A stretch of 51,741 bases of DNA from Ferrithrix thermotolerans DSM 19514. Lineage in GTDB: Bacteria; Actinomycetota; Acidimicrobiia; Acidimicrobiales; Ilumatobacteraceae. The position numbers and the translations under genes are program-made. Positions 5,126 to 37,325 of this stretch are shown here, in pieces. The DNA lies in the NCBI GenBank assembly GCA_945861325.1, contig CAMATY010000001.1, positions 1 to 51,741 of the forward strand, read 5' to 3'. The notes beneath the pieces are model-generated. The model was not told the DNA's origin, searched no databases, and worked only from the letters and a program-made list of their open reading frames with translations. Numbering within the stretch: position 1 is the stretch's first letter; each line of letters starts with the position of its first letter.

Positions 5126-6150
5126 GAAACACCATCCCAATTTGAGAATGCATCAATCATTGCTTTGACATCACCAAGTGGATAAAGAATCGGGCAGGTA
5201 GCGCCGTTCTTAAGGTAATGGGTTACCCGTTGACGAGCCTCTGTCGGTGTTCCACTTGCGGTGAGCATTTGAACAATTTCATCGGGCACATGTTTTGATG
5301 CTGCAACAACTTGCTCGTGAGTTGCTGGCCAAGTTAGAACTGAGCCAACTTTGTCAAGTATTGACTGGGGTACACCCGATGCCTTCATGATGTGTGGCTG
5401 TTGACCGAGATATTGGGTGACCATCTGTCGTGCCATGTCGAGAGCAGTCTTACGATCTTGATGAACGCTACAAACAACCAATTGCGGTCGATCTATTGAG
5501 TCAACAGATCTTCCTGCGCGATCAGCGCCAATAGTCAATGCTTCCATCGCCTTTTGGTTATATTCAGGTGAAACCAAGTAATTCAAAACCACGCCGTCGG
5601 CAATCTCACCAGTTAATTCCATCATCTGCATTCCAGTTGCGCCAATATAAATTGGAACATGTTTCGCGCGACGCTCCTGATACACATAGTCCAGTTCCAC
5701 GCCGTCGAGGTGCACGAATTCGCCGCTAAAAGTGACAGTCTCATTATTTAGAAGCGCACGCACACTGGTGACGATTTCGCGCATCGCACGCAATGGTTTA
5801 GCGCGCGAGATGCCAACTTTTTGCGCTAGCGGGTCCCACCATGCACCGATACCTAAAATCACGCGACCTGGCGCAAGGTCGTCGAGAGTTGAGAAAGTAG
5901 CCGCAAGGCGAGCAGGGTTACGACTCCAGCAGTCAACGACACCAGAACCGACTTTAATTCTTGTGGTTACAGATGCAAACGCGGCCATTGGTACTGTTGC
6001 TTCGCGCACGAGTCGACTCTCGGCTTGCCACACTGCTTCGAATCCTTTGCTCTCGGCGTATTTCGCAAACTCCATTCCCTCCGAAATGCGATGCGCATCT
6101 TGAAGATATAACGCAACGCGAGCGGACTTCGCTTGTGTGACTGGGCTCAT
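5122..6150 (-). CDS. Luciferase-like (LLM class, Mer/F420- or flavin-dependent) oxidoreductase (342 aa)
   Basis: TIM-barrel LLM pattern: FEAVWQAE...RIKVGSGV...[11 protein letters not shown]...YIGATG. The start abuts the upstream stop with a 0-nt gap. Confidence 0.8.
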
Positions 6151-7221
6151 TTAACTTGCCAACCTTTCGTGTAGTCGTTTCGATTGTTCGGCGGCTTTGG
6201 CTCTAACTTCATTAATGTCAACTCGTGTCGGCACACCTGAAACTAGAACTTGCTCACCGTCAATTTCAACATCTGTTGCGCGGATACCTGGCGTGAATGC
6301 GACATGCCATTCACTTTCGAGATGATCGTAATTGAACCTCACTTTGTCGGTTTTTGCTTCGGGGAAATATTTGTATCCGTTTTCAAGCCAAGACCAAACG
6401 ACAGAAGGCGAGGCGGAAACATCAAACTCGCGTAAGCGAACGTATGCAAGCCGTGCTTCTTCAAGCATGTCCGCGCCAATGCCATCCGTGCCGAGCATTA
6501 CTTGATTGTCAAGTTGAGTTGGTTTTGCATACCCCACAGAATTATTCATATTTGATCGGGGATTATGAACCACTGCGCCAGCAAGTTTGCGATCAAGATG
6601 AACCGCGTGAATTAAAAGCCAGTCGTCGTTCGCAAGATGCTCAAGTCGAGGACCGGCTTGCTGGTCATCAATACCTTCGGCAACATGAATATGTACGCCG
6701 ACATTGTGTTTTAGCGCAAGTTGGCTTGCTGCGTTCAAGGTTTCATCGCTACACGTGAAAGCAGCGTGAACACCAACCATTCCACGACCACCTTCAGATA
6801 AATAGCGATCGCATTCAGCCAAGCCTTGTTTGGCCGCTTGCGTCATCTCAGAAAGTGGCGAAACTTTTGAATGCAACTTGCCGGCATTATCCCAACGATC
6901 AGTCACTCCATAACAAGCATTTACGCGCACGCCAACCTCTTTACAAGCTTTCGCAATAGTTGACAGTGAGCCATCAATACTTTTGGGTGATTCGTGATGA
7001 TCAATAATACAAGTCGTGCCACTCAGTAGAGCCTCAGTTGCACCGAGCATCGCCGACCAATAAATCATTTGATCATCAAGCGCATCATCTAACCGCCACC
7101 AAACTTGTTGAAGAATCTCTATAAAGTTTGTCGGAGAATGTTTCGGGGCGGGCATTCCGCGAGCAAGAGACGAATACAAATGATGGTGTGCACATACAAG
7201 TCCCGCAGTCTGATTCGACAT
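6151..7221 (-). CDS. SsnA/chlorohydrolase-like amidohydrolase-superfamily protein, N-terminally short (356 aa)
   Basis: HxH metal motif already at residues 12-14 (CAHHHLYS), WWRLDDALD, IIDHHESP, HIHVAEG, HNPRSNMNNSVGY, LGTDGIGADM. As I recall E. coli SsnA, these are close to its blocks. Confidence 0.75.
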   Translation of the reverse strand: MSNQTAGLVCAHHHLYSSLARGMPAPKHSPTNFIEILQQVWWRLDDALDDQMIYWSAMLGATEALLSGTTCIIDHHESPKSIDGSLSTIAKACKEVGVRVNACYGVTDRWDNAGKLHSKVSPLSEMTQAAKQGLAECDRYLSEGGRGMVGVHAAFTCSDETLNAASQLALKHNVGVHIHVAEGIDDQQAGPRLEHLANDDWLLIHAVHLDRKLAGAVVHNPRSNMNNSVGYAKPTQLDNQVMLGTDGIGADMLEEARLAYVRLREFDVSASPSVVWSWLENGYKYFPEAKTDKVRFNYDHLESEWHVAFTPGIRATDVEIDGEQVLVSGVPTRVDINEVRAKAAEQSKRLHERLAS

Positions 7222-28760: not shown

Positions 28761-29822
28761 TCAGATCGTTTTTTGATGGCGGTGATTGCAACGCCAACCA
28801 GTTGATGTTCGCCTAAATGTGTCTGAACTGCGAACTAGCGTGACTGTCGCTTTGCCGCTAGACGCGCCGATACGACGCTCAATTATCAGATTACCGTTGG
28901 CCGTTCCGTTACCTTCGTCGGCGAAAAATGCCATCACTAGTGGTACTTCAATGATGAATTGATTTTTTGTAAACTGTGAGGAGAAATCTTGACGAATTTG
29001 GGCAATGTCGACGGCTTCGGGCAAGATGTCGCAACTAATCGTCGCATCATCAGTGAAATAATTCATTACCGCTTCAAGATCTCCACGACTAAGCGCGTCG
29101 GAGTGCATTGACACCAACTGTCGAAGATCAAAATCAGTCGCCAACGACGCCGGTCGGGGAGCATCATCATCAAGTTGTTTGCTTGAGCCGTTCGAGGATT
29201 TCGTAGAGCGACGAGAATCACGAATGTCATCTGACGAAAGACCGGTTTCTGCTGCGGCGAGTTGGCGCATCAACCGAATGAACTCTTTGCGTTTGAGTAC
29301 ACCTTCATGGGCGGCATATTGCACGGCCAAGCCGTCGATCAATCCCGATATTCGAGTGGCAGATTCGCGCGGATGTAAACAGTGAAACTCTCCTGACTCA
29401 TTACCTGCTCGCAGAACCTTTTCGAAAACAGCAATCGATTGAGCGTCGAGTTCTTGACTTATCGGTTTCATTTTTGGGTTTCGCAATGCTTCACCCCATG
29501 CATCAATCCACAGCATCCATTCGACATCGTCGCTTCCCTCGGGTACATAACTCTCAATCAGTCGCCACAACTTGGCTACTGCCGTGGGTGCCGATGCGCT
29601 GTCGCGTTGCATGTCAGCAAGGTCTTTGTTTGCGTAGTGCTCGAATGCTGCAGCAAGCAATTCTTCTTTAGAAGCAAAGTGATAATGAATTAGGCTGTTT
29701 GAAACTCCGAGTCGTTTGGCGACATCTGCCACTCGGGTGCCCGCAAAGCCGCGTTCAATGATTACATCGCAGGTAGCCTCAAGAATCTCAATGCGACGCT
29801 GCTCAACTGTTTCTTTTTTCAC
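28761..29822 (-). CDS. TetR-family regulator fused to a C-terminal NTF2-like (SnoaL/DUF4440-type) domain (353 aa)
   Basis: HTH RRIEILEATCDVIIERGFAGTRVADVAKRLGVSNSLIHYHFASKEELL; Ser/Asp-rich linker; C-terminal HSDALSRGDLEAVMNYFTDDATI...WRC pattern typical of NTF2-like folds. Confidence 0.8.
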   Translation of the reverse strand: MKKETVEQRRIEILEATCDVIIERGFAGTRVADVAKRLGVSNSLIHYHFASKEELLAAAFEHYANKDLADMQRDSASAPTAVAKLWRLIESYVPEGSDDVEWMLWIDAWGEALRNPKMKPISQELDAQSIAVFEKVLRAGNESGEFHCLHPRESATRISGLIDGLAVQYAAHEGVLKRKEFIRLMRQLAAAETGLSSDDIRDSRRSTKSSNGSSKQLDDDAPRPASLATDFDLRQLVSMHSDALSRGDLEAVMNYFTDDATISCDILPEAVDIAQIRQDFSSQFTKNQFIIEVPLVMAFFADEGNGTANGNLIIERRIGASSGKATVTLVRSSDTFRRTSTGWRCNHRHQKTI

Positions 29823-30822: not shown

Positions 30823-32154
30823 ATGTTACGTCACCAAATGCCGATGACTAAGCACTTTTGGCTTAAGGCCTTCCTCATGGTGCTGTGCTCGTCATTCACA
30901 TTGTTTGGTCTCGGTGCGGGCACGGCCCAAGCGGCCGAAGATGGCGAATTTTTTATTATTGCGAGTGTTCAAAATCAGATCCTTAAGGACTCAAAGACTG
31001 AGCGCACTCCAGTTGCTGGAGTGACCATCAAAGTCACTTCCCTTGACGGAAAGTTAATTGGCGAGGCAATCACAGGTGAAGACGGACTGTGTAAAATTGC
31101 GGTACCTACGCGCGACAACTATTTGATTGACATAGATATCAAGACACTGCCTGATGGTCTGAACCTAATTGACGCTGAAAAAACCCAAGTCAGAGTTAAC
31201 CAGGAGTTGTTCACGACTTCAACAAAGCGGGTAACTTTTTTTACAGGCGATAGTGGGGTAGCTGGCGCCAGCGAATTCGAACGGATAATGCAACGATTAG
31301 CGGACGGAATCCGACTCGGGATAATCATCGCGATGTGCTCGGTTGGACTTTCGCTAATTATTGGAACAACGGGACTAACGAATTTCGCACACGGCGAGAT
31401 GGTCACATTCGGCGCGCTTGTTGCATTTTTTTTCAATGTAAATTTAAATATTCCGATTTTAATTTGCGGTCCATTAGTTATTCTGATCAGTGGATGCTTC
31501 GGACTACTTATTAACTGGGGAATATTTGCTCGCTTGACAAAGCGCGCCATTGGTTCTAATTCGCAATTGGTAGTTTCGCTTGGTCTCTCTTTGATGCTGA
31601 TTAATATTTACCTATTTTTGTTCGGTGGACGGACGAAACAACTGACGAGTTATTCAAAGCAAGTTAATCTTCGCATAGGGCCGATTGGTATCACTCCGAG
31701 AGATCTAACAACAATGTTTATGGGTATCGGAATATTGCTCAGTGTCGCGTTATTTTTGCAGAGATCTAGATTTGGTAAGGCGATACGCGCAGTTAGTGAC
31801 AATGTCCAACTTGCATCAGCAACTGGTATCGATACGCAAAAAGTAATTCGGATTGTTTGGTTTGCCAGTGGAGCGCTGGCTGCAACTGGTGGAATCTTTC
31901 GAGGGCTAGATGAACAGGTCAGTTTTTCAATGGGCTCAGATTTGATTTTCCTAATGTTCGCCGGAATCACTCTGGGCGGACTCGGCTCTGCATACGGCGC
32001 ACTAGTTGGTGGTTTCTTCATTGGTATTTTTGTTGAAATGGCCGCTCTGTTCGTGCCTAGTGAACTGAAAGTAGCACCAGCGTTATTTATTTTAATTTTG
32101 GTTCTCATCGTGCGCCCGCAAGGAATTTTCGGCAGAAGTCAAAGGGTTGGCTGA
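30823..32154 (+). CDS. livH: Branched-chain-amino-acid-type ABC permease (LivH family) with a signal-peptide-led N-terminal extension of about 150 aa
   Basis: The core starts near residue 150 (GIRLGIIIAMCSVGLSLIIGTTGLTNFAHGE). The extension has signal ...GTAQA-AE followed by a beta-rich VAGVTIKVTSLDGKLIGEAITGEDGLCKIAVP carboxypeptidase-regulatory-like pattern. Confidence 0.88.
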   Translation: MLRHQMPMTKHFWLKAFLMVLCSSFTLFGLGAGTAQAAEDGEFFIIASVQNQILKDSKTERTPVAGVTIKVTSLDGKLIGEAITGEDGLCKIAVPTRDNYLIDIDIKTLPDGLNLIDAEKTQVRVNQELFTTSTKRVTFFTGDSGVAGASEFERIMQRLADGIRLGIIIAMCSVGLSLIIGTTGLTNFAHGEMVTFGALVAFFFNVNLNIPILICGPLVILISGCFGLLINWGIFARLTKRAIGSNSQLVVSLGLSLMLINIYLFLFGGRTKQLTSYSKQVNLRIGPIGITPRDLTTMFMGIGILLSVALFLQRSRFGKAIRAVSDNVQLASATGIDTQKVIRIVWFASGALAATGGIFRGLDEQVSFSMGSDLIFLMFAGITLGGLGSAYGALVGGFFIGIFVEMAALFVPSELKVAPALFILILVLIVRPQGIFGRSQRVG

Positions 32155-32155
32155 C

Positions 32156-33160
32156 ATGGATTGGCTAAAAATTATTGAGAATACGCTTCGGGCTTCAATC
32201 GGTGTAGATGCAATATATTTTGCGATAGCGGCCATAGGTCTGAACATCCACTTTGGTTATACGGGCATGCTTAACTTTGGTCAGGCCGCATTTATGGCCT
32301 GCGGGTCATACGGGCTTGGCATGACCGCTCAATATTTTGGTGTTGGCCTTTGGTGGGGTATTCCAATTGGCATTGTGTTCGTGGTAATCCTTTCATTGAT
32401 CGTCGGTATTCCAACATTGCGACTACGCGCCGATTATTTAGCAATTGTGACTATTGCAACGGCTGAGATTGTTCGGCTGTTCGTTCGATCTGTGAAATTC
32501 AACAAGGTTTTTGGAGGCACCGAGGGAATAAGCAACTTCAGTCGTCAATACCGCGAACTGAACCCATTTGAGCCAAGCAAAACATACGGAATTCGTCCAT
32601 TTCTTTTTACTGGGTACTCAATTTTTACAATTTTCGTTGGATGGATTTTGGTTGGGATATTTTCATTATTTACATGGCAATTGATGCGTAGTCCATGGGG
32701 CAGAGTAGTCAAAGGTATCCGCGAGGACGAAGATGCAGTGCGCAGCCTTGGTAAAAACGTTTACGCCTACAAGATGCAAGCGCTCGTGATCGGTGGTGTT
32801 ATCGGTATGTTCGCTGGAATGCTTTTGGCGCTTGATCGCGGATCTGTCCAACCAGACAACTACAGCCGAATGGTTACTTTCTATATTTTGACAGCACTTG
32901 TGCTGGGTGGCCTGGCAAAGGTTTCGGGTTCAGTTTTTGGCTCAATGTTTTTCTGGGTGTTGTTTGTACTTTCAGACAACATTATGCGCGAAGCAACTCG
33001 CAACGGACCATTACGCGTTGCCGGTTTCACTATCATCGAAAGCAACCAAGTGGGCGCCGTCAACTACATGTTCGTCGGCATTGGTTTGATGCTTTTAATT
33101 GTGTTCAGACCACAGGGACTGTTTGGTAACCGCCAAGAAATGGCGCTCGATGGTCGCTGA
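32156..33160 (+). CDS. livM: Branched-chain-amino-acid-type ABC permease (LivM family)
   Basis: LNIHFGYTGMLNFGQAAFM and GIPTLRLRADYLAIVT motifs. The ATG at 32156 lies 1 nt after the livH stop; an in-frame TTG at 32147 is the alternative start. Confidence 0.88.
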   Translation: MDWLKIIENTLRASIGVDAIYFAIAAIGLNIHFGYTGMLNFGQAAFMACGSYGLGMTAQYFGVGLWWGIPIGIVFVVILSLIVGIPTLRLRADYLAIVTIATAEIVRLFVRSVKFNKVFGGTEGISNFSRQYRELNPFEPSKTYGIRPFLFTGYSIFTIFVGWILVGIFSLFTWQLMRSPWGRVVKGIREDEDAVRSLGKNVYAYKMQALVIGGVIGMFAGMLLALDRGSVQPDNYSRMVTFYILTALVLGGLAKVSGSVFGSMFFWVLFVLSDNIMREATRNGPLRVAGFTIIESNQVGAVNYMFVGIGLMLLIVFRPQGLFGNRQEMALDGR

Positions 33161-34028
33161 ACGAAATTACGGTGAACTAGCGACAAAAGTTCGCGCCGCA
33201 CTCTCTGAAGTTGAGCAAAGACCCGGCGTGGCTAAGCCAGATGCGATTTTGACTGCAGACGGTGTCCGTAGACATTTTGGCGGCATCTTAGCGGTAGATG
33301 TGAATCATATTGAAATACAGCGTGGCTCAATCACTGCATTGATTGGACCAAACGGTGCTGGCAAGACGACCTTCTTCAATCTTCTGTCGGGCTTTGATAA
33401 GCCAGATTTAGGCGAATGGAGATTTGACGGCCACAACATGTCTCGTGTGGCACCTCATAAGACAGCCAGCATGGGAATGGTTCGAACATTTCAATTGACG
33501 AAAAGTCTTACAAAAATGTCTGTTATCGAAAACATGAAACTCGGAGCAATGCATCAGGTCGGCGAAAAATGGTGGAACGGACTACTACCGTTTATGTGGC
33601 GCTCGCAAGAAGAGAAAATCGAAAAGCGTGCAGATGCATTGCTCAAGCGTTTTAAAATGGATCATATGCGTAACGAATATGCTGGAACCCTTTCTGGAGG
33701 ACAACGAAAACTTCTCGAGATGGCACGAGCGCTAATGACTGAGCCTAAACTCGTGATGCTTGACGAGCCTATGGCTGGTGTTAATCCAGCGCTAAAACAG
33801 AGTCTTAACGAACATATTCGCGGCTTGCGCGATGATGGGATGAGTGTGCTTTTCGTTGAACATGACATGGATATGGTTAATGATGTTGCGGACTGGGTCG
33901 TGGTCATGGCCGAAGGCGTGATTATCGCCGAAGGTACTCCAGAAAATATTGCGAACAACGAGAAAGTAGTCGAGGCATACCTCGGACTTCACCAGGGAAG
34001 TTCGTTGTTAGATGAGGTGGCTCAATGA
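33150..34028 (+). CDS. livG: ABC ATPase, LivG type
   Basis: Walker A GPNGAGKTT, LSGGQRKLLEMARA, MLDEPMAGV, FVEHDM. I chose the ATG at 33150 rather than the longer ORF that would overlap livM by 62 nt. Confidence 0.9.
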   Translation: MVAERNYGELATKVRAALSEVEQRPGVAKPDAILTADGVRRHFGGILAVDVNHIEIQRGSITALIGPNGAGKTTFFNLLSGFDKPDLGEWRFDGHNMSRVAPHKTASMGMVRTFQLTKSLTKMSVIENMKLGAMHQVGEKWWNGLLPFMWRSQEEKIEKRADALLKRFKMDHMRNEYAGTLSGGQRKLLEMARALMTEPKLVMLDEPMAGVNPALKQSLNEHIRGLRDDGMSVLFVEHDMDMVNDVADWVVVMAEGVIIAEGTPENIANNEKVVEAYLGLHQGSSLLDEVAQ

Positions 34029-34756
34029 GCACCGTTCTTGATGTTAAAGATTTAGTTGCGGGATACATACCCGAAGTAAATATTTTGAATCTTTGCAACA
34101 TCACCGTAAATCAAGGCGAATTTGTCGGAATAATTGGACCAAATGGTGCTGGCAAGTCAACTGTGTTAAAAGCAATTTTAGGAGAGTGCGCAGTGCGGGG
34201 TGGAGAAGTGCGCCTAGGTGAATTGAATATCACCGGCTTCAAAGCGCACGAATTAGTTGAACGTGGCGTTGGCTATGTGCCGCAAAATAGAAACGTATTC
34301 CCAAGCCTTACAGTTACTGAAAACCTCGAGATGGGCTGTTTTTTGAAGCCGTCTGTTTTTAAGGATCGATTTGAATATGTTTCGACACTGTTCCCTCGGT
34401 TGCGTGAGCGAGCGAGTGTAAAAGCGGGATCTCTCTCGGGTGGCGAGCGTCAGATGGTTGCAATGGGGCGAGCTCTAATGATGGAGCCAAAGCTGTTATT
34501 ACTAGACGAACCTTCTGCAGGCTTGTCACCGTTTCTTCAAGATGAGGTGTTTATTCAATGCAAGAAGATCAATTCTGAAGGTATTGCGATACTTATGGTT
34601 GAACAGAATGCCCGGAGATGTTTGCAGGTTTCACATCGGGCATATGTTCTAGACCAAGGAAAGAACGCTTACATGGGAAGCGGCAAAGATTTACTCACTG
34701 ACCCAAATGTGATCAAGCTTTATCTCGGAACACTTGCCAAAGCCACTGGCGGCTGA
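34025..34756 (+). CDS. livF: ABC ATPase, LivF type
   Basis: GPNGAGKST, LSGGERQMVAMGRA, LLLDEPSAGL, VEQN. ATGA overlap with livG. Confidence 0.9.
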   Translation: MSTVLDVKDLVAGYIPEVNILNLCNITVNQGEFVGIIGPNGAGKSTVLKAILGECAVRGGEVRLGELNITGFKAHELVERGVGYVPQNRNVFPSLTVTENLEMGCFLKPSVFKDRFEYVSTLFPRLRERASVKAGSLSGGERQMVAMGRALMMEPKLLLLDEPSAGLSPFLQDEVFIQCKKINSEGIAILMVEQNARRCLQVSHRAYVLDQGKNAYMGSGKDLLTDPNVIKLYLGTLAKATGG

Positions 34757-34763
34757 TTTCAGT

Positions 34764-34790
34764 TAGCGAATCAATTCGCTATTATTTTTT
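34764..34790 (+). terminator. Rho-independent terminator of livHMGF
   Basis: TAGCGAA-TCAA-TTCGCTA stem-loop followed by TTATTTTTT. Confidence 0.6.
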
Positions 34791-34805
34791 CAAGTTCGAT
34801 ACAAA

Positions 34806-34835
34806 TGAAAAGGCCCCGGGCTCTCGCCCGGGGCC
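34806..34835 (-). terminator. Rho-independent terminator of the binding-protein gene
   Basis: Perfect 10-bp stem GGCCCCGGGC-TCTC-GCCCGGGGCC, followed on the minus strand by UUUUCAUUU. Confidence 0.7.
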
Positions 34836-34863
34836 AATCCATTTAATCCCTAGAAATTATTGG

Positions 34864-36222
34864 TTACTTACCCTCGTTAAAGTTCTGCCCGAGTGCGTTA
34901 CCAATGTTCCCGTCAACGCCATAGACCTTCTTCGCTTTTGGTCCAACACCGTTCTCCACCATTGTGCGGAGAATGCGTGAGCCTTCGTCGAATGTGATCA
35001 AGACGATTGCGTCTGGGTTAGCAGCAACAATCTCTCCGACTTCGGCATCAAATGTTGTTGCCTTAGGATCGTAGATCTTCTTGCCAGAGATTTTTACACC
35101 AGCGGCAGTGAGAACTTCTTCTACGACTGTTGCGAGTCCAGTTCCATAAGCATCATCTAACGCCATGATGTAAACAGATTGCACACCGTCAGCGACGATA
35201 ATTTCTGCAAGAACTGCACCCTGGAGGTCATCCGGTGGTGCGTTACGGAAGAACAAACCGTTGTCTGCGTATGAAGTCAACTTAGGCGAAGTGTTCGCTG
35301 GGCTGAACTGAATAACACCTGCAGCAGTGATCTTGTCGATAACTGTGAGCGATACACCAGATGATGCTGCACCAACAATGGCGTCAACACCTTCTTTGAG
35401 CAAACGATCTACAGTCACGCTGGCTGTGTCAGTTGAAGTGTCGCCGGAATCTCCTGCGCTGTATTCAACTGGCTTGCCAAGAACTCCGCCGGCCTTGTTT
35501 ATATAATCAATTGCATACTCAACACCAGCAATCATTGGAGCACCAAGGAATGCGAGGCTGCCAGTTTCTGGTAGAAGTCCACCAATTTTAAGAACACCGT
35601 TACCCTTGCGGGCTACGCCTGTCTTCGAAAGTGGAAGGACTGCTGACTCTGGAGCATTAGCAAGTTGGTATGTAGTAAGTGTGTCATCGAGAAGGTTGCC
35701 TGCACCAAATTGAAGGATGCCGTACGAAGCCTCGAGAGGCTCGCCGTTTCCGTTCATTGTGTTTGGACCAGAGAAACCGTCGAAGTCGACGTCGCCCTTT
35801 GCTTTAACTGCCGCAAGGCAATCAGCCCAAGTTGCTGGTGAGCACTTTGTGCCTTCTTTTGAAACAGCAACAATTTGGTCAGCAAGTGCGCTGCCGTCTG
35901 TGCCTGCTGCTTCTGCTGCAAGTGCGATCAACATCACTGCGTCAAATGATTCTGCTGTGTAGTTGAAGTCAACAAGTGCTTTGTTGCCTTTTCCTGTCCA
36001 AAATGCATTAACTGCGTCTTTGAACTCTTGAGTCAACTCCACAAGTGGAGTTGTTCCCTTCATACCTGCCAACTCGCTGCCAGCCTCTTCAACAACAGGT
36101 GCTGCTGTCTCGACTGGTGCAGTTGTCTCTTCTGTTGCTTCATCGGAGCCGCCGCAAGCCGCAGCCAAAAGGCTGAGACCGACAACAAGCGCACTGAAGC
36201 GTTTCGCTGTAGTTTTTTTCAT
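34864..36222 (-). CDS. Lipoprotein, type-I periplasmic binding protein (LivJ/Peripla_BP_6-like) with apparently circularly permuted segment order (452 aa)
   Basis: Lipobox LLAAAC-G. Residues about 210-452 (VLKIGGLLPETGSLAFLG...AGGVLGKPVEY...) align with the N-terminal ~250 residues of LivJ-type proteins. Residues about 51-187 (GMKGTTP...FDAVMLIALAAEAAGTDG...DFDGFSGPNTMNGNGEP...YGILQF) align with the C-terminal ~100 residues. RBS GGGAGA precedes the ATG. Confidence 0.85.
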   Translation of the reverse strand: MKKTTAKRFSALVVGLSLLAAACGGSDEATEETTAPVETAAPVVEEAGSELAGMKGTTPLVELTQEFKDAVNAFWTGKGNKALVDFNYTAESFDAVMLIALAAEAAGTDGSALADQIVAVSKEGTKCSPATWADCLAAVKAKGDVDFDGFSGPNTMNGNGEPLEASYGILQFGAGNLLDDTLTTYQLANAPESAVLPLSKTGVARKGNGVLKIGGLLPETGSLAFLGAPMIAGVEYAIDYINKAGGVLGKPVEYSAGDSGDTSTDTASVTVDRLLKEGVDAIVGAASSGVSLTVIDKITAAGVIQFSPANTSPKLTSYADNGLFFRNAPPDDLQGAVLAEIIVADGVQSVYIMALDDAYGTGLATVVEEVLTAAGVKISGKKIYDPKATTFDAEVGEIVAANPDAIVLITFDEGSRILRTMVENGVGPKAKKVYGVDGNIGNALGQNFNEGK

Positions 36223-36281
36223 TTATTTTCTCCCCCTAGGAGTAGGACAGCGGGATGCTGGCCATTAGTTAGGAAACTCTA

Positions 36282-36310
36282 AGGGTATTGAAGAAACTCT
36301 TAATAGGCAA
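36282..36310 (-). promoter_or_regulatory. Putative sigma-A-type promoter of the binding-protein gene
   Basis: On the minus strand, TTGCCT-17 nt-TACCCT (TANNNT), about 60 nt upstream of the ATG. Confidence 0.3.
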
Positions 36311-36371
36311 CTAAAAACCCGAATTGGCGCGACGGATGAAATGTTTTCTCGCAACTGGCGTAGTCAGATGT

Positions 36372-37325
36372 CTATGACTGATTTGATGCTGCAGCCTTGG
36401 TCAGACGGTCCCTAATCGCCTCGGCCAGACCATTGCCGGCAGGCAAAACCGCAACAACTACTGCAATATCGTTGGCGTCGGCGAGGCGCAATTCTGCGTA
36501 CAACTGCTTGGCGTAGAGATTGATATTGTCGCAGAAGTCAAGCACTGATGCTCGTACACCAGCATTTTCCAGCTCAATCTGTCGAGCAATGGCCTGTGCC
36601 GAATTCTCAGCAACTACAACTTTGCAATTCGGCGCATAGTGTTTCTCAAGCATCCCTGATGCACGAGCTTCTCCATCTGATTCATCCACATTGAGTTTTG
36701 CAATTTCTTTAATCTCGTTTTTAGTGATCGCCCCAACACGCAAAATCTGCAGATTCGTCCGAGTGCAATCGAGGATTGTTGACTCAATGCCTACGGCACA
36801 GTGACCACCATCAAGCACCAAAGCAATATCCGAACCGAGATCTGCAACAACATGGTGTGCAGATGTTGGACTTACTTTGCCAAACCGATTTGCAGAAGGA
36901 GCCACTAAACCGTCATTGAGGTTAGATAACAGCCGAAGTGCGACTGAATGATTAGGAACTCTGATCGCAACTGTATTGCGGCCACCAGTTATTTCATCGC
37001 AAACCAAATTGCTTCGTTGAAGAATAATCGTCAGTGGTCCTGGCCAAAAGTGTTTACCTAAATCTTTGGCGTATTTCGGAATTTCAATAGCCCACTTATC
37101 TAATTCTTCAAAACTTGCAAGATGCAAAATTAATGGGTGACTAGTCGGCCGTTGCTTCACCTTGAAAATTTTTCTCACAGCCGTTTTACTTGAAGCCAAA
37201 GCGGCAAGCCCATAAACGGTCTCGGTTGGCAAGCCAATTAACTGATCGTTCTTAAGGCATTCAATTGATCGAAGGATTGAAGAATCTAGTTTGCCATCAA
37301 TTATCTCGGCATCGTGATTGCTCAT
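36372..37325 (-). CDS. tsaC: L-threonylcarbamoyladenylate synthase (Sua5/TsaC, long form with the Sua5 C-terminal domain)
   Basis: PTETVYGLAA, KQRPTSHPLILH, VAPSANRFGKVSPT. I prefer the ATG at 37325, which avoids overlap with the upstream gene, to 37358. Confidence 0.85.
   Translation of the reverse strand: MSNHDAEIIDGKLDSSILRSIECLKNDQLIGLPTETVYGLAALASSKTAVRKIFKVKQRPTSHPLILHLASFEELDKWAIEIPKYAKDLGKHFWPGPLTIILQRSNLVCDEITGGRNTVAIRVPNHSVALRLLSNLNDGLVAPSANRFGKVSPTSAHHVVADLGSDIALVLDGGHCAVGIESTILDCTRTNLQILRVGAITKNEIKEIAKLNVDESDGEARASGMLEKHYAPNCKVVVAENSAQAIARQIELENAGVRASVLDFCDNINLYAKQLYAELRLADANDIAVVVAVLPAGNGLAEAIRDRLTKAAASNQS

Follow-up and report, generated by a model that had tools for sequence, protein, structure and literature searches.

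The binding-protein gene and its segments

We analysed a stretch of 51,741 nucleotides (nt), called the window here, from assembly GCA_945861325.1 of Ferrithrix thermotolerans DSM 19514 (contig CAMATY010000001.1, positions 1 to 51,741 of the forward strand). Its minus strand carries a gene for a substrate-binding lipoprotein of the LivJ type, the sole LivJ-type gene in the window, which faces a livHMGF-type set of transporter genes. This binding protein is very probably a true and functional circular permutant of the LivJ-type fold, with the old C-terminal third (segment B) placed in front of the old N-terminal two thirds (segment A). The following features were located; segA and segB are hidden Markov models (HMMs) of the two segments, and L068 is the locus of a canonical homologue from Spirilliplanes yamanashiensis.

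30823..34756, plus strand: livH-livM-livG-livF-type permease and ATPase genes, the presumed cognate transporter (Pfam BPD_transp_2 twice, ABC_tran twice, BCA_ABC_TP_C)
34802..34835, minus strand: intrinsic terminator 3' of the binding-protein gene, with a stem of 10 G-C pairs, a GAGA loop, then TTTTCATTTG (terminator scan)
34864..36222, minus strand: whole coding sequence of the permuted substrate-binding lipoprotein, 452 amino acids (aa) and stop codon (open reading frame list; Pfam Peripla_BP_6, 132.6 bits)
34867..35604, minus strand: segment A, residues 207-452, old N-terminal two thirds (Peripla_BP_6 2-226/343; BLASTP against L068; segA HMM 1-239/240)
35605..35652, minus strand: linker, residues about 191-206, PESAVLPLSKTGVARK, bridging the old C- and N-termini (located between the segA and segB matches)
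35653..36072, minus strand: segment B, residues 51-190, old C-terminal third of the LivJ fold (ANF_receptor; BLASTP against L068; segB HMM 1-132/132)
36073..36153, minus strand: tether, residues 24-50, rich in acidic residues, Thr, Pro and Ala, from the lipid anchor to the fold (sequence)
36154..36222, minus strand: signal peptide and lipobox, residues 1-23, MKKTTAKRFSALVVGLSLLAAAC, lipidated residue Cys23 (direct sequence reading)
36230..36236, minus strand: Shine-Dalgarno-like GGGGGAG, 7 nt 5' of the ATG (upstream sequence reading)

The open reading frame at 34864-36222 of the minus strand, its lipobox (LAAC, Cys23) and the acidic linker with Pro and Thr were present exactly as a first-pass annotation of this DNA had described them. 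The signal peptide was assigned by reading the sequence together with the family consensus, in which the L-A-A-C lipobox is kept; the tether varies in length and composition among homologues.

The terminator hairpin and its T run were found at 34835-34812, 3' of the stop codon. In a separate folding-energy scan this site had -26.3 kcal/mol, the lowest value among all hairpin-plus-T-run sites of the window, in line with the earlier description of the strongest terminator in the window. The convergent gap between livF and the binding-protein gene is 107 nt and holds one terminator-like hairpin per strand within 34764-34835, a weak one on the plus strand (34764-34781, 3 G-C pairs) and the strong one on the minus strand (34835-34812, 10 G-C pairs). 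The first-pass annotation had also given the gene promoter-like elements of its own, and this was not borne out, as no sigma-70 consensus promoter was revealed by a consensus scan of 34500-36600. A TTGCCT-17 nt-TACCCT pair upstream of the gene, spotted by eye, was too weak to count.

Segment B is made up of the final lobe 2 strand, the lobe 1 C-terminal sub-domain and the return strands. Compared with E. coli LivJ/LivK it contains an insertion of about 30 residues with two invariant cysteines, Cys127 and Cys135 (C83 and C91 in the numbering of the structure model; window 35818-35844), which probably form a disulfide in this extracytoplasmic protein. The insertion is common to the permuted proteins and the canonical Spirilliplanes homologue. 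The linker ends in a class-specific Arg205-x-Gly-[Asp/Asn]-Gly motif, and R161, G163 and G165 of the linker (model numbering) are invariant or nearly so in an alignment of 104 homologues. Segment A comprises strands 1-5 of lobe 1, the first hinge and most of lobe 2, with a helix at the new C-terminus.

By the segment HMMs the mature protein has the length of one fold with one copy each of B and A, not the tandem ABAB, and no further copy of either segment was found elsewhere in the window. The earlier view that the mature length equals one complete fold without duplication thus stands. The old C-terminal part, formerly set at residues about 51-187 after the lipobox, is placed at 51-190 (about 140 residues), and the linker joining the old termini, formerly counted as about 22 aa, is confirmed at about 20 aa.

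Order of the segments compared with canonical relatives

In the native order, Pfam Peripla_BP_6 matched only residues 211-437, corresponding to profile positions 2-226 of 343 (132.6 bits, cutoff 31.7). ANF_receptor and Peripla_BP_5 were also above their cutoffs with the same partial coverage. The canonical collinear order is therefore absent: the native chain covers profile 2-226 only, and the remaining third lies N-terminal of that part. Residues 27-205 taken alone matched ANF_receptor 235-350 of 353 (E 7e-6, 25.7 bits, cutoff 25.4). The first-pass annotation had expected two Peripla_BP_6 partial matches in swapped order; this profile gave one partial match, and the swapped second match was obtained with ANF_receptor.

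We then joined residues 206-452 to residues 49-190 as a de-permuted construct. It gave a single collinear Peripla_BP_6 match over 2-337 of 343 (140.5 bits versus 132.6 in the native order) and an ANF_receptor match over 6-350 of 353. Against the Protein Data Bank (PDB), all significant alignments of the native sequence, to binding proteins and receptor flytrap domains, were inside residues 205-445 and stopped near chain position 230-260; weak second matches below threshold paired residues about 81-122 with chain positions about 270-312. The de-permuted construct aligned with 4gnr over 5-316 (7-310 of 4gnr), collinear across the artificial junction, with E 2.5e-18 compared to 2.4e-14 in the native order. 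It was also collinear with the E. coli leucine-binding protein 2lbp (14-332 corresponding to 11-321).

The canonical-order homologue was found by genome scan in the Spirilliplanes locus (open reading frame 5722-7164), convergent to livFGMH. Comparison by BLASTP gave two blocks in swapped order: query 199-448 matched subject 94-342 (57% identity, E 2e-82), and query 51-176 matched subject 347-466 (43% identity, E 4e-25). The homologue reads '...NLSNYGKEFPANTFGGAKGTQPG...' where the window protein has '...NIGNALGQNFNEGK' at its C-terminus and '...SELAGMKGTTPL' at its N-terminus. Since NLSNYGKEFPANTFGGAKGTQPG spans both, the cut falls in one single loop. The swapped blocks, which are decisive, and the collinear profile after de-permutation confirm, well outside what chance would give, the earlier proposal of a circular permutation of one fold, and the assignment of residues about 210-452 to the N-terminal part of the family is upheld by Peripla_BP_6 2-226/343 and the 57% identity.

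The full 1-452 architecture was detected in more than 70 species-level genomes, nearly all of them metagenome-assembled genomes of Acidimicrobiia, including freshwater acIV, Ilumatobacteraceae and bins labelled 'Acidimicrobium/Ferrithrix'. A search seeded with a 51%-identical member added Microthrixaceae (Candidatus Microthrix subdominans) and the cultured Actinospongicola halichondriae. Among close homologues, retrieved as 90%-identity clusters, 239 of 240 shared the architecture, and the permuted members carry signal peptides and stop codons. A Sua5/TsaC gene lies upstream of the binding-protein gene on the same strand. The order Sua5, binding protein, then LivF, LivG, LivM and LivH on the opposite strand was kept in 55 related loci (43 with Sua5 and 12 without it), so that the convergent arrangement with livHMGF, noted before, is confirmed both by the Pfam matches of the neighbours and by these loci.

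We considered whether segment 51-190 could be an unrelated accessory domain in front of a C-terminally truncated LivJ-like protein, with nothing permuted. The restriction of Peripla_BP_6 and Peripla_BP_5 to 211-437 would suit this, as would the segment's own Pfam match barely over threshold. However, the segment shares 43% identity with the C-terminal third of the canonical homologue, de-permutation led to full collinear profile coverage with a higher score and collinear PDB alignments, and the predicted model is one compact domain (see below), so an accessory domain is very improbable. An artefact, that is, a mis-assembled or frameshifted tandem duplicate or an ABAB fragment at contig ends, has next to no likelihood: fused ABAB relatives do exist, one of them (P0194, below) with near-identical copies and a frameshift on a long-read contig, but the window gene comes with a Shine-Dalgarno sequence, signal peptide, lipobox, stop codon and terminator of its own, and mis-assembly, frameshift or fragment is excluded because the architecture is widespread (70+ independently assembled genomes, hundreds of clusters down to about 47% identity), its order is conserved and no other copy of either segment lies in the window.

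Predicted structure, ligand site and function

An AlphaFold2 model was built for residues 45-452 from the alignment of 104 permuted homologues (47-89% identity). It replaced a model made from the single sequence, which had a mean confidence score (pLDDT) of 42 and was unusable. The alignment-based model is a single compact domain with pLDDT 94.9 and predicted TM-score (pTM) 0.91, without any low-confidence stretch, and the linker region has pLDDT 90-93. In Foldseek searches against the PDB, the top matches were LivJ-like binding proteins and flytrap domains of class C receptors. Every alignment covered 223-263 of 408 columns with a query-normalised TM-score of 0.38-0.51, the outcome to be expected when an order-dependent aligner meets a permutant. 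No solved structure with this chain order turned up in the Foldseek search of the PDB.

In canonical LivJ-type proteins the N-terminus lies in lobe 1, the C-terminus lies in lobe 2, and the chain crosses the hinge three times. We took the LivJ hinge positions to be 118-121, 248-252 and 326-331, as reported for the LivJ/LBP structures, and mapped the secondary structure of the model onto the LivJ alignment. The chain path obtained in this way would be that of a membrane-tethered lipoprotein of the adjacent LivHMGF-type (HAAT family) importer, with a permuted Type I / cluster B 'Venus flytrap' fold. Leaving the lipid anchor and flexible tether, the chain would enter the last strand of lobe 2 (strand 55-59, MKGTT, corresponding to LivJ 'LLVTK'). 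Next would come the old second hinge and, beyond it, the helices and short strands of the lobe 1 C-terminal sub-domain (65-147, with the insertion of about 30 residues), followed by a return through the old third hinge (strand 164-172) to lobe 2 (strand 184-189). A conserved linker of about 16-20 residues (191-209; about 190-209 in the model) would lead to strand 1 of lobe 1 (strand 212-217), and from there the canonical path would run via the old first hinge (about Pro330/Asp331) into lobe 2, with 442-450 as the last helix and the end at residue 452.

In the E. coli LivJ alignment the cut falls near LivJ residue 242/243, directly ahead of the strand from which the chain passes into the second hinge crossover. 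The first-pass annotation had put it at the third crossover, which does not fit this alignment with the hinge numbering given above. It had also moved the chain termini into the hinge; the breakpoint lies inside lobe 2 and not in the hinge itself. Because lobe 1 holds the canonical N-terminus and lobe 2 the canonical C-terminus, the linker must cross between the lobes and would add a fourth hinge segment. By homology to the LivJ topology, it is likely that the hinge has four crossing segments instead of three. Both new termini would be in lobe 2, and the lipid tether would sit on the opposite lobe compared with canonical relatives. We might speculate that the changed tether lobe or the extra hinge strand alters the open/closed mechanics or the docking.

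For the ligand site, we take the LivJ residues holding the alpha-amino and alpha-carboxylate groups of the ligand to be Ser79, Ala100, Thr102, Tyr150, Tyr202 and Glu226. Alignment to LivJ/LivK gave the following counterparts in the binding protein.

LivJ Ser79: Ser288
LivJ Ala100: Ala309
LivJ Thr102: Thr311
LivJ Tyr150: Tyr359
LivJ Tyr202: Phe411
LivJ Phe276 (Tyr in LivK): Tyr88, in the moved segment

In the MAFFT alignment LivJ Glu226 stands at Tyr434, shifted there by a few residues. Asp437, which belongs to a nearly invariant Asp-Gly-Asn motif, pairs with the G-D-G Asp of Atu2422, presumably the counterpart of LivJ Glu226. In model numbering, Asp393, Gly394, Asn395, Tyr44 and Glu47 show little or no variation. 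The predicted pocket would thus keep the residues that bind the amino-acid backbone, namely Ser288, Ala309, Thr311, Tyr359, Tyr88 and probably Asp437. It would be built from both segments, because Tyr88 is in the moved segment and the remainder are in segment A. These positions do not fix the ligand, because Phe411 replaces Tyr202 and the equivalence of Asp437 hinges on a one-residue shift from one alignment to the other.

Judged from the conserved residues and the neighbouring genes, the protein most likely binds an L-amino acid and passes it to LivHM, and LivGF would supply the ATPases. It could instead be a sensor or receptor domain, or an orphan binder, that stands beside livHMGF without a role in transport. 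The gene is convergent to the transporter operon and not co-transcribed with it, fusions of this permuted domain with Ser/Thr protein kinases (P0244) and with other binding proteins occur, and permutants of a second breakpoint class (class II, below) are orphans away from any transporter. However, the convergent layout is shared with the canonical Spirilliplanes homologue and kept in 55 loci, the gene is the sole binding protein of its family in the window, and most of the predicted backbone-binding residues are conserved. A non-transport role is therefore improbable, and we keep to binding and delivery of an amino acid.

Several proteins of the retrieved set (P numbers) carry further domains. 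A Ser/Thr protein kinase domain precedes the permuted module of breakpoint class I (the class of the window protein, below) in P0244 (777 aa) and a canonical module in P0257 (866 aa). A Bmp/PnrA-like binding protein precedes class II permuted modules in P0305 (777 aa) and P0384 (942 aa), SBP_bac_1 precedes a canonical module in P0250 (846 aa), and YceI follows the tandem ABAB in P0325 (1034 aa). Because of these kinase and other fusions, the permuted module is presumed to act also as an extracellular sensor.

Two-lobed binding proteins are the standard model of ligand capture by hinge bending and the main scaffold for biosensors, and engineers have permuted them artificially. To our knowledge, natural permutants are rare. 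The glycine-betaine binders OpuAC of Bacillus subtilis and ProX of E. coli reportedly have swapped sequence halves (Horn et al. 2006); they have the Type II / cluster F fold and another ligand class, and show no sequence relation to the window protein. We found no description of a permuted LivJ/HAAT-type (branched-chain) binding protein in the literature covered, in which most subscription journals are outside coverage.

One binding protein of Type I / cluster B has been described as naturally permuted, TpMglB-2 (Tp0684), the glucose-binding lipoprotein of Treponema pallidum; its authors proposed the label 'Type Ic / Cluster Bc', with TpMglB-2 as founding member (PMC4990184). In TpMglB-2 the join of the old termini forms a fourth hinge, both termini are in one lobe, and ligand binding and closure are retained (PMC4990184). 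The moved part is only about 13% identical to canonical MglB, so the origin was left open (PMC4990184). The window protein, likewise a lipoprotein and a natural permutant of this fold, is rearranged in a like manner, but in another family and at another site. TpMglB-2 belongs to the sugar-binding MglB family and has a Ca2+ site, whereas the window protein belongs to the LivJ/Peripla_BP_6 amino-acid family. In TpMglB-2 the cut is in the N lobe and the first three strands moved to the C-terminus, whereas the window cut is in lobe 2 and the last third moved to the N-terminus. Among the Pfam/NCBIfam matches there was no sugar-binding family but only LivJ, urea and ANF-type ones, and TpMglB-2 was not among the top 50 structural matches from Foldseek. 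TpMglB-2 has no close canonical relative, whereas the window protein shares 43-57% identity with a canonical homologue in both segments; these close canonical relatives, the fused tandem forms and a second cut point are what is added beyond the TpMglB-2 case.

The solved LivJ-like proteins (LivJ/LivK, 4gnr, 3ipc/Atu2422, 4n0q and 2lbp) share with the window protein the Pfam family, the two-lobe fold, most of the backbone-binding residues and a LivHMGF-type importer. They have the canonical order with three hinge crossovers, and the window protein is collinear with them only after de-permutation. Moreover, E. coli LivJ/LivK do not have the Cys-pair insertion of the window subfamily and are free in the periplasm, whereas the window protein is lipid-anchored. 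The Spirilliplanes homologue resembles the window protein as a lipoprotein, in the Cys-pair insertion and in its convergent position beside livFGMH, but it has the order A then B and does not contain the Arg-x-Gly-[Asp/Asn] linker motif.

Tandem forms, breakpoint classes and origin

The segment HMMs A and B were applied to 392 proteins, comprising 390 retrieved proteins, the window protein and the Spirilliplanes homologue. The segment orders were distributed as follows.

All 392 proteins: BA (permuted) 280, AB (canonical) 88, ABAB 5, A only 17, BAA 1, AA 1
Best 150 representatives at 50% identity: BA 40, AB 87, ABAB 4, A only 17, BAA 1, AA 1

The five ABAB proteins differ in the identity between their two units.

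P0194: 759 aa, units 99% identical
P0245: 813 aa, units 70% identical
P0295: 856 aa, units 73% identical
P0325: 1034 aa, units 82% identical
P0379: 815 aa, units 64% identical

The family of P0245 comprises 17 members from Candidatus Poriferisocius, on contigs up to 3.6 Mb. It was found at the same convergent position beside ABC ATPase genes, directly after another canonical binding-protein gene. In one such locus (L081, 1242-5018, Candidatus Poriferisocius-like), a canonical gene of 408 aa comes directly before the fused tandem gene of 813 aa, with convergent ABC ATPase genes next, so that the fold stands three times in a row where the window has one permuted copy. The gene of P0194 (L077, 6001-8640, on a long-read metagenome contig) is an in-frame tandem duplication of a canonical gene, convergent to livFGMH. 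Over the first ~950 aligned nucleotides its units show only about 5 differences, and in the second unit a 1-nt frameshift truncates the called protein at 759 aa, with the remaining segment B readable in the +1 frame. P0194 is either a very recent duplication or a long-read assembly artefact. P0030 and P0091, considered as duplication intermediates, were rejected, as they merely have different N-terminal anchors.

The permuted proteins were divided into two breakpoint classes. Class I, including the window protein, starts with 'L-x-G-M-K-G-T-x-P' and ends with '...DGN-x-GNALG-x-NF-x-x-G-K'. Class II carries the 'V-x-L-Y-G-x-D-G-N...' strand and a helix N-terminally, and its C-terminus, '...G-I-G-P', comes about 17 residues sooner, so that its cut is one strand-helix unit before the class I cut. 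The class II proteins are complete lipoproteins and carry lipoboxes of their own. One class II cluster is from Dactylosporangium sp., and its gene is an orphan beside enoyl-CoA hydratase and 3-hydroxyacyl-CoA dehydrogenase genes without a transporter. The Arg-x-Gly-[Asp/Asn]-x motif directly before strand 1 was present in 16 of 18 class I representatives, 237 of 239 close class I homologues, 1 of 18 class II representatives and 1 of 87 canonical representatives. The specificity of the motif for class I suggests that this class is one lineage or reflects one structural constraint.

A neighbour-joining tree was made from the de-permuted A and B segments (131 units). The permuted proteins fell in several groups on branches of 0.007-0.03, and the best split had 11 of 100 bootstrap. 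Because this tree is essentially without resolution, we relied on the breakpoints and the linker motif, and because it is uninformative, only at least two trimming events are claimed.

Duplication, fusion and trimming is the best-supported route to the permuted gene, and we regard it as likely. A canonical gene at this locus would have undergone tandem duplication and in-frame fusion, and the outer parts would then have been lost. The same route had been named in the first-pass annotation, and it is now supported by the fused ABAB relatives and the second breakpoint class. Gene fission with re-fusion in the opposite order, or recombination between adjacent paralogues, could give the same product. 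Tandem canonical genes adjoin at the locus in some genomes, 17 representatives have segment A only (though most of them look like fragments), and the tree does not tie permuted to ABAB proteins. However, the fused ABAB form, the intermediate predicted by the duplication model, is present in at least three lineages, and independent trimming would be expected to leave different cut points, here one strand-helix unit from each other. In addition, part of the linker aligns with the canonical N-terminal leader, as the alignment begins at query residue 199, and no adjacent pair of a B-only and an A-only gene was seen. Fission and re-fusion is thus an unlikely origin compared with duplication and trimming.

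Several points weigh against a functional permutant that arose in this way. Peripla_BP_6 gave no second swapped match, and the only one, from ANF_receptor, exceeded its cutoff by a narrow margin (25.7 versus 25.4 bits). In the ligand site, LivJ Tyr202 became Phe411, and the pairing of Asp437 with Glu226 hangs on the shift between alignments. The fourth hinge crossing and the lobes of the termini follow from homology to the LivJ topology. The tree, with its very short internal branches, shows no single permuted clade, and any count of origins or link to the ABAB forms would be tentative. P0194, whose context is closest among the ABAB proteins, may owe its tandem copies to long-read assembly.

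A wider proposal can be made only tentatively, and taken as a whole we hold it to be possible but doubtful. One actinobacterial LivJ-type subfamily might keep every stage of permutation by duplication, largely at one locus, from the canonical gene and adjacent paralogues to ABAB fusions and at least two permutants, trimmed independently with cuts one strand-helix unit apart. One permutant might have become fixed in freshwater and activated-sludge Acidimicrobiia because the changed tether lobe and the fourth hinge strand alter opening, closing or docking to LivHM, and the module might later have been reused as an extracellular sensor of Ser/Thr kinases.

As the normal, the tandem-fused and the second permuted forms are still extant, the rearrangement of a two-lobed binder can be studied with its steps surviving. 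The matched natural partners (the canonical homologue of 43-57% identity, the fused tandems and the second cut point) permit tests of tether position and of hinge strand number against affinity, closure kinetics and transporter docking, and the same protein set permits a test of the duplication-and-trimming model of circular permutation. In annotation, this abundant protein of uncultured freshwater Actinomycetota is named merely 'ABC transporter substrate-binding protein', with a domain match over two thirds of its length. The match is truncated because the protein is permuted, which shows how domain databases miss permutation.

Some features of the neighbouring genes were also recorded. The LivH-type permease (30823-32154, plus strand) has 443 aa, and BPD_transp_2 was matched from residue 160 only; its N-terminal extension of ~150 residues gave no Pfam match at E<=1e-5, and a similar LivH of 442 aa was found in the Spirilliplanes locus. 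For livG (33099-34028, plus strand) the longest open reading frame begins at TTG, overlaps livM by 62 nt and has ~50 residues before ABC_tran; the true start is probably further downstream. At 28761-29822 on the minus strand we found a gene for a 353-aa protein with TetR_N, TetR_C_6 and a C-terminal SnoaL-like domain, divergent from a COX15/CtaA-like gene just upstream of livH.

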